Made by a program: the position numbers and the translations under genes
Assembly: GCA_044868695.1 (NCBI GenBank)
Contig: JBIOWP010000115.1
Coordinates: 1-62,305, forward strand
DNA from: a bacterium
GTDB lineage: Bacteria > Sysuimicrobiota > Sysuimicrobiia > Sysuimicrobiales > Kaftiobacteriaceae
Length of the DNA stretch: 62,305 nucleotides
Reading direction: 5' to 3'
In this document: positions 24,472 through 24,980 of the stretch, piece after piece
Layout: each line of letters starts with the position of its first letter
How positions within the stretch are numbered: the first letter of the stretch is position 1
Notes under the pieces: model-generated
The model's input: the letters and a program-made list of their open reading frames with translations, nothing else
The model's database searches: none
What the model was told of the DNA's origin: nothing

Positions 24472-24603
24472 GATTTGAAGTCAGCGAGCGATGATCGGAA
24501 GCAGTAGGCTGGTGCCCTGGACGCAGCGAGCCGGGGTGTGGTGCAAGCCGGCGCCGGTGGGGCCAGCCGAACTCGTCCGAGAGCCGCCCGATTGAACGAT
24601 CAC

Positions 24604-24666
24604 GGATCTTGGATCCTGGATCTTGGGCGATGCCGTCCCGGGATCCAACATCCAGGATCAAGGATC
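24604..24666. repeat. Heptamer repeat hairpin inside T-box Stem II
   Basis: ggatctt ggatcct ggatctt ... gggatcc aacatcc aggatca aggatc. Confidence 0.8.
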
Positions 24667-24716
24667 GACGTAGGTTGGGCCGTCTGCGCACGTGACGCGT
24701 TTGAGCGGATAGCGTT

Positions 24717-24791
24717 GGGCCTGTAGCTCAGGGGGAGAGCGCCCGCTTGGCGTGCGGGAGGTCGCGGGTTCAATTCCCGCCAGGTCCACCA
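24717..24791 (+). tRNA. tRNA-Ala(GGC)
   Basis: Full cloverleaf: GGGCCTG/CAGGTCC acceptor with G3:U70, anticodon arm CCCGC-TTGGCGT-GCGGG, TTCAATT T-loop, encoded CCA. Confidence 0.97.
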
Positions 24792-24886
24792 TTCGACTCG
24801 CCCACCTCTGGTGGGCTCGCTCATGGTCTTCGACCAGGGCGTGCGAGTTGAATGGTGCCCTGAGCGAGCGGAGCGAGTCGAAGGGC
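24792..24886. repeat. REP-like palindromic element abutting the tRNA 3' end
   Basis: TTCGACTCGC (24792) / GCGAGTCGAA (24873); inner CTCGCTCA / TGAGCGAG. Confidence 0.65.
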
Positions 24887-24926
24887 TCCGTCGGCCCGCG
24901 CTATCAATCGGGGTGGTACCACGGAA

Positions 24927-24969
24927 CCGCCTTCGTCCCCAACCATGACGAGGGCGGCATTTACTTTTT
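24927..24969 (+). terminator. Intrinsic terminator of the Leu T-box
   Basis: CCGCCTTCGTC / GACGAGGGCGG followed by CATTTACTTTTT; overlaps the antiterminator 3' strand. Confidence 0.8.
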
Positions 24970-24980
24970 GGGGGTGGAGT

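Follow-up and report, generated by a model that had tools for sequence, protein, structure and literature searches.

A complete tRNA-Ala(GGC) gene lies within a hairpin of a leucine T-box riboswitch, in the apical loop of Stem III of the leader that precedes ilvE and leuS, and the same nesting is found in well over a hundred species that belong to several bacterial phyla. We describe it here from the window, the whole 62,305-nucleotide stretch of DNA that was analysed, and from its relatives. The leader probably serves two purposes (we put the chance at roughly seven in ten): a single strong promoter would produce transcripts that each yield a tRNA, while the T-box gates expression of ilvE-leuS. 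The arrangement apparently has not been described so far. A literature search, with comparative T-box surveys, TBDB and the Rfam full alignments outside its scope, returned no earlier account of a tRNA nested in a T-box, in line with the sequence-only reading that preceded this analysis and that was aware of no described T-box with a non-cognate tRNA gene.

The elements listed in the sequence-only reading were all found in place by inspection of the sequence, by ARAGORN and by Rfam (Table 1). When the Rfam T-box model (RF00230) was applied to a 601-nt stretch, it aligned end to end, with model positions 1-219 corresponding to 24482-24943 of the window, and it placed the tRNA where that reading had put it, within 184 nt that are inserted into the Stem III loop relative to the model. 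Stem I contains the base GA/K-turn region, the AG bulge, the distal loop that forms the platform for the tRNA elbow, and a specifier loop reading GAA-CUC-G, in which the leucine codon CUC occupies 24572-24574 and is followed by G. The proposed pairing of GATAGCG (24708-24714) with CGCTATC (24899-24905) as Stem III can be read directly from the letters, and RF00230 pairs both strands. Stem III of T-boxes is flanked by a purine motif, 5'-RRRxG...AA-3' (PMC7583486, in excerpt), and in the window the two parts of this motif border precisely the helix closed around the tRNA (GAGCG-GATAGCG...CGCTATC-AA).

The elements predicted to lie downstream of the tRNA, namely the antiterminator, the terminator and ilvE-leuS, were also located. 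The antiterminator consists of helix A1 (GGGG/CCCC), the bulge UGGUACC (UGGU at 24914-24917) and helix A2, and its 3' half is shared with the 5' arm of the terminator, making the two structures mutually exclusive. In the terminator, 24927-24937 pairs with 24947-24957 to form an 11-bp stem, which is capped by a 9-nt loop and followed by a U-rich tail. An automated terminator scan missed this hairpin, which was seen on folding; we attribute the miss to the 9-nt loop, which exceeds the 3-8 nt limit of the scan.

Table 1. Features of the leader and of the genes downstream, in window coordinates
Feature	Position	Strand	Basis
Sigma-70-type promoter-like site, TTGACG-18-TATAAT	24442..24471	+	11/12 matches
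T-box Stem I	24482..24586	+	RF00230 alignment, sequence, fold
Stem II	24587..24679	+	RF00230 alignment, 61-nt insert
Stem IIA/B region	24680..24702	+	Aligned to T-box model
Purine string GAGCG (RRRxG motif) and Stem III 5' strand GATAGCG	24703..24714	+	Sequence, RF00230
tRNA-Ala(GGC) gene	24717..24791	+	ARAGORN; Rfam tRNA 67.9 bits vs gathering score 29
Multi-copy structured repeat in Stem III loop	24786..24900	+	5 genome copies, fold
Stem III 3' strand CGCTATC and conserved AA	24899..24907	+	Sequence, RF00230
T-box sequence and antiterminator	24910..24940	+	RF00230 alignment
Intrinsic terminator	24927..24969	+	Fold, -23.8 kcal/mol
ilvE, branched-chain amino acid aminotransferase	24981..25955	+	NCBIfam NF005146, 400.4 bits
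leuS, leucine--tRNA ligase	26041..28563	+	NCBIfam TIGR00396, 977.9 bits

Two further insertions, both absent from the sequence-only reading, enlarge this leader. The first is a 61-nt hairpin that extends the apex of Stem II (24612-24672), built of short GGATC-type repeats; the Stem II region with its extension folds at -55.1 kcal/mol (z -5.85). The second is a structured repeat that starts at the CACCA end of the tRNA and accounts for about 100 nt of the Stem III loop, with a predicted fold of -64.6 kcal/mol (z -4.71). Five copies of this repeat occur in the genome, and three of the other four sit directly after the 3' ends of tRNAs or tRNA-like sequences. Compact relatives lack it, and it was inserted secondarily into the Stem III loop. 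In the predicted fold the repeat pairs with the CACCA end of the tRNA, a pairing that could hinder tRNA maturation or Stem III closure; in the minimum-energy fold of the window Stem III is still paired around the insert.

The alignment to RF00230 scores 54.0 bits (E 4.9e-11) in the 601-nt stretch and does not reach the Rfam gathering score of 93, because large insertions are penalised; every conserved T-box motif in the window is intact and aligned with high posterior probability. One could argue from the score, and from the presence of two large insertions (in the Stem III loop and in Stem II), that the T-box is decaying, i.e. that the repeat and the Stem II extension have disabled the switch and left a long pre-tRNA leader with a constitutive or leaky terminator. 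The tRNA complement could be cited for the same view: ARAGORN detected leucine tRNAs with anticodons CAA, CAG, TAA and TAG in the 95%-complete, 162-contig assembly, and found no gene for tRNA-Leu(GAG), the partner of the CUC specifier. We regard decay as very improbable, given that the low score reflects insertion penalties on a leader with all its motifs, that Stem III pairs around its insert, and that three relatives (L002, L008 and L011) carry similar large inserts with their T-box motifs intact.

The nested tRNA-Ala(GGC) itself looks functional, judging by its G3:U70 pair, A73 and encoded CCA. The G3:U70 pair is an identity determinant for alanine, and it is found together with ACCA in all 90 of the nested copies compared, the window's included. 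The residue at position -1 is U in 69/90 loci against a background of 17%, and an RNase P RNA gene (283.7 bits) is present in the window's genome. The sequence-only reading had asked whether this was the only Ala(GGC) gene; it is the only one found in the window's 162-contig assembly, and the nested copy is likewise the sole Ala(GGC) gene found in each of the six genomes checked (the window's and five others). In the cross-phylum census each group was searched by BLAST with its own nested tRNA, the window's tRNA being too insensitive a query. The guest is rightly called non-cognate, with a specifier for leucine (CUC) and a tRNA anticodon for alanine (GGC). We considered an alanine specifier (GCC), which would make the tRNA cognate, and rejected it: the GCC immediately ahead of GAA belongs to the Stem I helix, and it reads ACC in the relative L015.

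A single promoter had been proposed for the whole unit, and the site at 24442-24471 is indeed the only sigma-70-like one in 24200-25100, where shuffled sequences give 0.2 +/- 0.5 sites. No promoter-like site was found between Stem I and the tRNA (24472-24716) by consensus scanning of the window, a method that may miss a weak or non-sigma-70 internal start. Relatives in the same family have near-consensus promoter sites at the same place, and among 65 cross-phylum loci, 36 have a site with at least 10/12 matches upstream of Stem I and one has such a site in the interval from the specifier to the tRNA. These data bear on two further explanations: a promoter of the tRNA's own within the leader, or a tRNA-like element that escapes maturation and whose only role is to cap Stem III structurally. 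Atypical promoters can escape consensus scans, and tRNA-shaped modules are stable folding units. The first idea is opposed by the near absence of promoter-like sites in the specifier-to-tRNA interval, and by compact leaders in which the sequence upstream of the tRNA is conserved T-box sequence throughout; the second is opposed by the invariant alanine identity elements and CCA and by the status of the nested copy as the sole Ala(GGC) gene in the genomes checked. We consider both ideas extremely unlikely.

Closely related genomes show the same organization. T-box matches to RF00230 were obtained at 16 of 19 loci in the family, with scores of 50-81 bits (below the gathering score of 93); in 13 of these the match covers the full model and runs across the tRNA, and two others, L009 and L012, gave partial matches only and show the full anatomy by eye. 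Loci L006, L013 and L020 had no T-box match to RF00230 at E<=0.01 and fall outside the parsed set. All 17 parsed leaders, i.e. the 16 family loci and the window, contain tRNA-Ala(GGC) with the same nesting, and the compact ones have linkers of just 2-3 nt around the tRNA and nothing but conserved T-box sequence upstream of it. Two further families of the order have the nested form as well, at four loci in all, and so does one locus from a family labelled f4. In family f3 the tRNA stands alone with its own promoter (TATAAT about 25-35 nt upstream) and with no T-box at that site.

What might have been taken as a one-off in this genome turned out to be an old arrangement of leuS leaders that is conserved widely. 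Across 185,579 species genomes, a generic scan for any tRNA 3' end with a T-box motif shortly after it matched at least 120 stretches; among the 80 matches listed, 76 have tRNA-Ala(GGC) and 72 have leuS downstream. The nested arrangement occurs in Chloroflexota, in several clostridial lineages of Bacillota and in Ca. Sysuimicrobiota, as well as in genomes labelled Armatimonadota and Coprothermobacterota. Cultured carriers include Thermosyntropha lipolytica, Desulfofundulus thermosubterraneus, Desulfotruncus alcoholivorax, Desulfitispora alkaliphila and Tengunoibacter tsumagoiensis. Forward pattern searches matched in 39/94 and 35/401 genomes, while the reversed-pattern control matched in 0/94 and 0/401. 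(Two genomes flagged as unpublished enter the tallies only: G033, in a count of 41/41, and G062, in the 39/94 and as one listed match.) Misassembly and chance were rejected as explanations, since independent assemblies, those of isolates among them, show the parts in the same order, and the reversed-pattern controls gave zero.

A specifier of the form RAA-CTC-R was found in 67/72 cross-phylum loci with enough upstream sequence, and 85/92 loci have, just beyond the T-box sequence, a terminator-like hairpin that ends in a T tail. RF00230 spans the tRNA in all eight diverse loci aligned, five of which reach the gathering score, at 95-133 bits.

Stem III covaries around the tRNA. An anchored Stem III was identified in 71/90 loci, representing 47 distinct sequences, and the conserved AA follows it in 67 of these 71. 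A Stem III of at least 6 bp is present in 53/90 loci, compared with 10.5% when the flanks are swapped and 2.4% when they are shuffled. Analysis of 22 sequences by RNAalifold and pair counts revealed compensatory changes in 5/5 Stem III pairs. These 22 were picked for an anchored stem of at least 5 bp and short linkers, so that the 100% pairing among them is partly a product of selection; the unselected figure is the 53/90 with at least 6 bp. Linkers have a median of about 4-5 nt on each side of the tRNA, with 2-3 nt in many loci and a range from 0 to 20, and several lineages have 40-124 extra nt after the tRNA.

The two-purpose leader can be pictured as follows. Transcription from the single near-consensus promoter would give an RNA that folds into a standard leucine T-box, with the tRNA-Ala(GGC) folding as its own domain in the Stem III apical loop and Stem III closing beneath it. 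Uncharged tRNA-Leu would stabilise the antiterminator and let the polymerase read into ilvE-leuS; otherwise transcription would stop at the terminator. The tRNA is part of the transcript whether it is read through or terminated, and each initiation would therefore generate one pre-tRNA-Ala. RNase P would be expected to cut on the 5' side of the tRNA after U-1, with 3' trimming back to the encoded CCA, and the abundant terminated leaders could thus supply the only tRNA-Ala(GGC) of the cell. Excision of the tRNA would also separate Stems I and II from the remaining leader and mRNA, with a possible effect on the fate of the message. The idea that leader transcripts, including terminated ones, are the source of the tRNA came from the sequence-only reading, and it is strengthened by the sole Ala(GGC) gene, the lack of an internal promoter-like site and the U at -1 in 69/90 loci. 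The data are compatible with its companion idea, in which a cut by RNase P would sever the switch and tune read-through. Simple hitch-hiking of a tRNA gene does not explain the exclusive choice of Ala(GGC) across phyla, a point that counts against the two-purpose reading, as do the missing tRNA-Leu(GAG) gene, the sub-threshold T-box score and the very stable repeat in the loop.

RNA data were sought in two soil metatranscriptome runs, which held 5-6% of the words searched and yielded contigs from relatives only. By a 31-letter rule, neither run contained a transcript bridging Stem I and the tRNA. One 164-nt contig combines 23 letters of the specifier region and 41 letters of the tRNA 5' half with 76 other letters between them; it is no evidence for co-transcription, and DNA carry-over is possible.

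The nested tRNA might be more than a passenger and might act as a working part of the switch, an idea that extends the two-purpose reading and does not exclude it. In one version, an RNase P cut before or after Stem III closure would unlink the Stem I-tRNA-Leu complex from the antiterminator and so set a ceiling on read-through. In another, the internal ACCA, about 20-130 nt upstream of the UGGU bulge, would compete for that bulge as a blocked, charged-like end; in a third, the extra 75 or more nucleotides would serve as a timing delay for ligand binding. The recurrence of the same isoacceptor at the same spot in 76/80 listed generic matches across phyla fits such a role, as do the short linkers (a median of about 4-5 nt per side, with many loci at 2-3 nt) and the fit of both the tRNA-Ala end and the T-box bulge to A73-CCA. 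Cleavage of the leader is moreover known to affect a T-box-controlled mRNA in the S. aureus met system (PMC7913692, in excerpt). On the other side, linker length ranges between 0 and 20 nt, an additional 40-124 nt after the tRNA is tolerated in several lineages, and the tRNA of family f3 stands alone with its own promoter and no T-box. Bacillus leuS T-boxes also function without a nested tRNA. On balance a working-part role seems unlikely.

A broader version of the same idea, which we offer as rather doubtful, treats the nested leader as a single, very old composite RNA gene that predates the split between Chloroflexota and the clostridial Bacillota. The tRNA would then contribute to the working of the switch, and either its maturation by RNase P or the tethered ACCA would set the threshold or ceiling of tRNA-Leu-dependent read-through and the fate of leuS mRNA. 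If this were true, expression of the synthetase would be tied to the tRNA-processing capacity of the cell.

Several consequences follow from the two-purpose reading and from the anatomy itself. Stem III, which belongs to the domain that senses aminoacylation, can carry from 75 to more than 200 extra nucleotides with all conserved motifs kept, and this tolerance of insertions bears on models of T-box folding and on T-box engineering. The steady stream of terminated leader transcripts would gain a purpose. A conserved, apparently functional RNA gene nested in a working helix of a riboswitch provides a natural test system, in the cultured carriers, for how such an RNA folds during transcription, whether processing or the regulatory decision comes first, and what becomes of terminated leaders. 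There are also implications for annotation: the leader falls below the Rfam threshold in many lineages and regulation of leuS is therefore unannotated there, and where leaders exceed the threshold the T-box and tRNA annotations overlap. As a rare genomic character, the arrangement could inform deep phylogeny or help to trace transfer of leuS.

Comparison with known systems places the nested leader close to several of them and apart from each. Like the canonical T-box (RF00230, e.g. Bacillus tyrS, glyQS and leuS), the leader in the window has Stems I, II, IIA/B and III with RRRxG...AA and a UGGN bulge, has competing antiterminator and terminator structures, and lies upstream of an aminoacyl-tRNA synthetase gene. 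The canonical form differs in that the window's Stem III loop holds an entire non-cognate tRNA gene together with a repeat, and the leader would therefore double as a tRNA precursor. The T-box leader of B. subtilis thrS is cleaved, and this affects its mRNA. The met T-box leader of S. aureus is cut by RNase III with an effect on the mRNA (PMC7913692, in excerpt). The nested leader would resemble these two, as far as the excerpt covers them, in being cut after the regulatory decision with an effect on mRNA stability; unlike theirs, its cuts are predicted to be ordinary tRNA maturation (RNase P and 3' trimming), set by the nested tRNA.

Extra structured RNA within a T-box domain is itself not new. 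[quoted passage not shown] Such insertions, like the nested tRNA, are conserved within lineages. In so far as the excerpts describe them, however, they are simple stems with an unknown or modulatory role, whereas the guest here looks like an RNA gene with a function of its own, and its conservation extends over several phyla and not just a single genus.

Transcripts that combine tRNA and mRNA are familiar from the E. coli thrU-tyrU-glyT-thrT-tufB operon and from the tRNA punctuation of mitochondrial transcripts. The nested leader would share with them a single transcript for tRNA and mRNA that is parted by tRNA-processing enzymes, but there the tRNAs are neighbours of the mRNA, and here the tRNA sits within a folded regulatory RNA, one helix of which has to close around it. 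An artificial counterpart also exists: the engineered tRNA scaffold and other hairpin-loop insertions put one structured RNA into the loop of a second helix, where it folds independently. In both cases one RNA sits in the loop of another helix and the two would fold independently, but the arrangement described here is natural, ancient and reversed, with the tRNA as the guest and the riboswitch hairpin as the host.

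The Rfam T-box model RF00230 aligns end to end with the window (model positions 1-219 on 24482-24943; 54.0 bits, E-value 4.9e-11) when 24400-25000 is searched at a permissive threshold. The sequence-only reading had proposed one promoter, a leucine T-box with a CUC specifier, an intact tRNA-Ala(GGC) gene enclosed by Stem III, and a terminator followed by ilvE-leuS. Because this anatomy matches the model alignment, the hairpin, the promoter-like site and the downstream genes, the observation is confirmed in every detail. The Stem III flanks match the purine string 5'-RRRxG-Stem III-AA-3', described in a review as the conserved hallmark of this stem (PMC7583486). 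The element has all the sequence and structural properties of a T-box that were considered except the Rfam score threshold, and no T-box appears in the Rfam output for the window at the gathering threshold.

Features of the nested leader and its surroundings (window positions unless a contig is named)
Feature	Position	Strand	Details
Sigma-70-like site	24442-24471		TTGACG-18-TATAAT; only such site within 24200-25100
Stem I			GA motif, AG bulge, distal loop (RF00230 alignment)
Specifier loop			GAA-CUC-G (RF00230 alignment)
Stem II			61-nt insertion; IIA/B region follows (RF00230 alignment)
Stem III			184-nt insertion in loop, tRNA inside it (RF00230 alignment)
Stem III strands	24708-24714 / 24899-24905	+	GATAGCG / CGCTATC; flanks GAGCG and AA
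tRNA-Ala(GGC)	24717-24791	+	ARAGORN; Rfam tRNA 67.9 bits (gathering score 29)
Structured repeat	24786-24900		about 100 nt of the Stem III loop; -64.6 kcal/mol, z -4.7
T-box sequence			UGGU bulge; last part in order, after Stem III (RF00230 alignment)
Terminator hairpin	24927-24957		11 bp, U-rich tail; overlaps antiterminator 3' half
ilvE and leuS			downstream of leader
Four further copies of the repeat in the window's assembly (G000)	C105:6623-6729; C137:20729-20777; C53:175-225; C146:751-844		

Two features had been overlooked, namely the structured repeat in the Stem III loop and a hairpin extension of Stem II. Four of the repeat's five copies in the assembly adjoin a tRNA or tRNA-like gene and start at its CCA (tRNA-Ala in the window, tRNA-Met, tRNA-Arg and one tRNA-like 3' end); the far arm of the repeat pairs with the CACCA of the tRNA. 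Related genomes hold many copies. The repeat could be mobile, with tRNA ends as its target, or could serve as a trailer or processing element. It is missing from most relatives' leaders, and three of these (L002, L008, L011) have a different large insert at this place. The Stem II apex (24612-24672) is a long hairpin of short tandem-like GGATC-type units (-55.1 kcal/mol, z -5.85); one relative's locus (L007) is likewise extended there, with GGTCGT-type units. Elsewhere in the window, a c-di-GMP-I riboswitch aptamer lies at 56247-56335 on the + strand (63 bits; gathering score 35).

The nested gene is the only tRNA that ARAGORN finds in the 62 kb of the window. With G3:U70, A73 and an encoded CCA, it appears by sequence to have every feature expected of a tRNA-Ala. 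The question raised earlier, whether it is the sole Ala(GGC) gene, can be answered for the assembly (2.59 Mb in 162 contigs, 95% complete, 67% G+C), where ARAGORN finds 45 tRNAs and no second Ala(GGC). A closed 3.6-Mb chromosome (G094) and four draft genomes from named strains likewise gave no Ala(GGC) gene besides the nested copy; where inspected in these five genomes, the next-best matches belong to other Ala isoacceptors or to different tRNAs.

Many of 40 related genomes searched at the DNA level contain the 5' part of the T-box, the tRNA and the 3' part of the T-box as collinear segments. Rfam gave T-box matches in 16 of 19 relatives' loci, 13 of them full length and spanning the tRNA, with one truncated at a contig end (L015) and two partial (L009, L012). 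Each of the 17 leaders that were parsed, counting that of the window, carries tRNA-Ala(GGC); in the compact ones, linkers of just 2-3 nt per side join the tRNA to Stem III. Four nested loci come from families f5 and f7 of the window's order and one from f4. A further family, f3, has the tRNA as a separate gene (five loci), preceded at about 25-35 nt by a TATAAT of its own; in the four genomes of f3 that were examined, the 1.5 kb ahead of leuS contain no T-box. A pattern for the compact form, which misses genomes with longer linkers such as the window's own, matched 39 of 94 species genomes of the phylum, none of 23 in f3, and none of the 94 when reversed. Its single non-Ala match in the phylum (G089:C22:68435-68491) has a different tRNA-like 3' end (…GGCACCA) followed after 20 nt by GGTGGGACCGCG.

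Wider occurrence was assessed with a tRNA-neutral pattern (generic T-arm, 11 free bases, CCA, 10-40 free bases and the T-box core GGTGGNACCRCG) in 185,579 species, each represented by one genome; the scan yielded at least 120 stretches, 80 of which became loci. Among the matches listed, 76 of the 80 contain tRNA-Ala(GGC); the others are one unrelated tRNA-Thr without a T-box and three without a tRNA call, two of these at a locus end. By record title, again among the matches listed, 36 are Chloroflexota (Limnocylindria, Ktedonobacteria, Thermomicrobiales, Chloroflexia, Anaerolineae) and 30 are clostridial-type Bacillota (Syntrophomonadaceae, Peptococcaceae, Thermoanaerobacteraceae, Desulfotomaculia-like), with further labels of Armatimonadota, Coprothermobacterota, Ca. 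Fervidifonticultor (itself a member of Ca. Sysuimicrobiota), proteobacterial and unclassified. A same-strand leuS follows in 72 of the 80 listed loci, behind ilvE in nine, and in six of the eight without leuS the downstream sequence is too short. A GNAT acetyltransferase gene lies between leader and leuS in Limnocylindria and Chloroflexia-labelled genomes (L042, L084 and similar), and an AMP-binding enzyme gene in Desulfotomaculia-type genomes (L066, L045, L109). Of the 72 listed loci with sufficient upstream sequence, 67 show the specifier context RAA-CTC-R, and in 85 of 92 leaders the T-box sequence is followed by a terminator-like hairpin with a T-rich tail. Rfam aligned the T-box at full length across the tRNA in all eight loci picked from different groups, five of them above the gathering threshold (95-133 bits). 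The compact pattern occurs in 35 of 401 sampled Chloroflexota genomes (reversed control, 0). In four loci of Ktedonobacteria-type and Chloroflexota genomes (L037, L053, L079, L089), a tRNA-Ala(CGC) gene sits just before the T-box leader, about 340-440 nt ahead of the nested gene, so that the leader is flanked by two alanine tRNA genes. A few Chloroflexota leaders (L106; G103, G116, G491) have the bulge UGGA in place of UGGU, and their nested tRNA still ends in ACCA.

Judged by comparison of 90 pooled nested leaders, Stem III really does appear to close around the tRNA. A stem anchored between the RRRxG motif and the bases immediately before the T-box sequence is found in 71 of them, with 47 distinct stem sequences and AA after the stem in 67 of the 71. 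Stems of at least 6 bp occur in 53 of the 90, compared with 10.5% for flanks exchanged between loci and 2.4% for shuffled ones. Changes between genera are compensatory (GATAGCG/CGCTATC versus GACAGCC/GGCTGTC, for example). For 22 compact leaders with distinct stems, RNAalifold predicts a cloverleaf inside a 5-bp Stem III in which all five pairs vary on both sides (covariation score 0.516, versus 0.163 after shuffling and no more than 0.103 with slid partners); possession of such a stem was the criterion for choosing these leaders, which partly accounts for their perfect pairing but not for the diversity of pair types.

The most likely model, to which we assign a probability of roughly 0.7 as a whole, is a dual-purpose leader in which a single strong promoter would produce a leucine T-box and a pre-tRNA-Ala at once. 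Of 65 loci, 36 have a site ahead of Stem I that matches at least 10 of 12 promoter positions (11 or 12 in 27 of these); only one of the 65 has such a site between specifier and tRNA. The tRNA would fold at the tip of Stem III, with the stem closing beneath it, and would be included in the transcript whichever way the switch decides, so that an essential tRNA would come mainly from the abundant terminated leaders. Its maturation would sever the leader. RNase P RNA is present in the window's genome. One sign of maturation from the leader is that U, preferred by bacterial RNase P at position -1, is found there in 69 of the 90 leaders, versus 17% in neighbouring bases. Co-transcription and cleavage are inferred, as is the model's usual response to tRNA-Leu; tRNA-Leu(GAG), the expected CUC partner, was not found by ARAGORN in the 95%-complete assembly (Leu anticodons CAA, CAG, TAA, TAG), and, with 5% of the genome missing, this may weigh against the model, not for it.

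Hitch-hiking alone does not explain why Ala(GGC), leuS leaders and Stem III are constant across phyla. That same constancy invites a bolder answer, which we consider unlikely: the tRNA is a true functional part of the switch, where it could uncouple Stem I from the antiterminator by cleavage, compete through its tethered ACCA, or impose a timing delay. A strict structural role is opposed by linkers that range from 0 to 20 nt, by the tolerance of 40-124 nt inserts, and by f3, which kept the tRNA and lost the T-box. More economically, the constancy would be explained by one origin, after which a single-copy essential gene became locked in.

Searches of the available full-text literature found no description of a tRNA nested in a T-box; the arrangement has apparently not been described before, but may have been noticed earlier. 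The nearest known cases are T-boxes with lineage-specific stems, the processing of thrS and met leaders, and tRNA-mRNA co-transcripts; in none of them does a riboswitch helix enclose a functional RNA gene.
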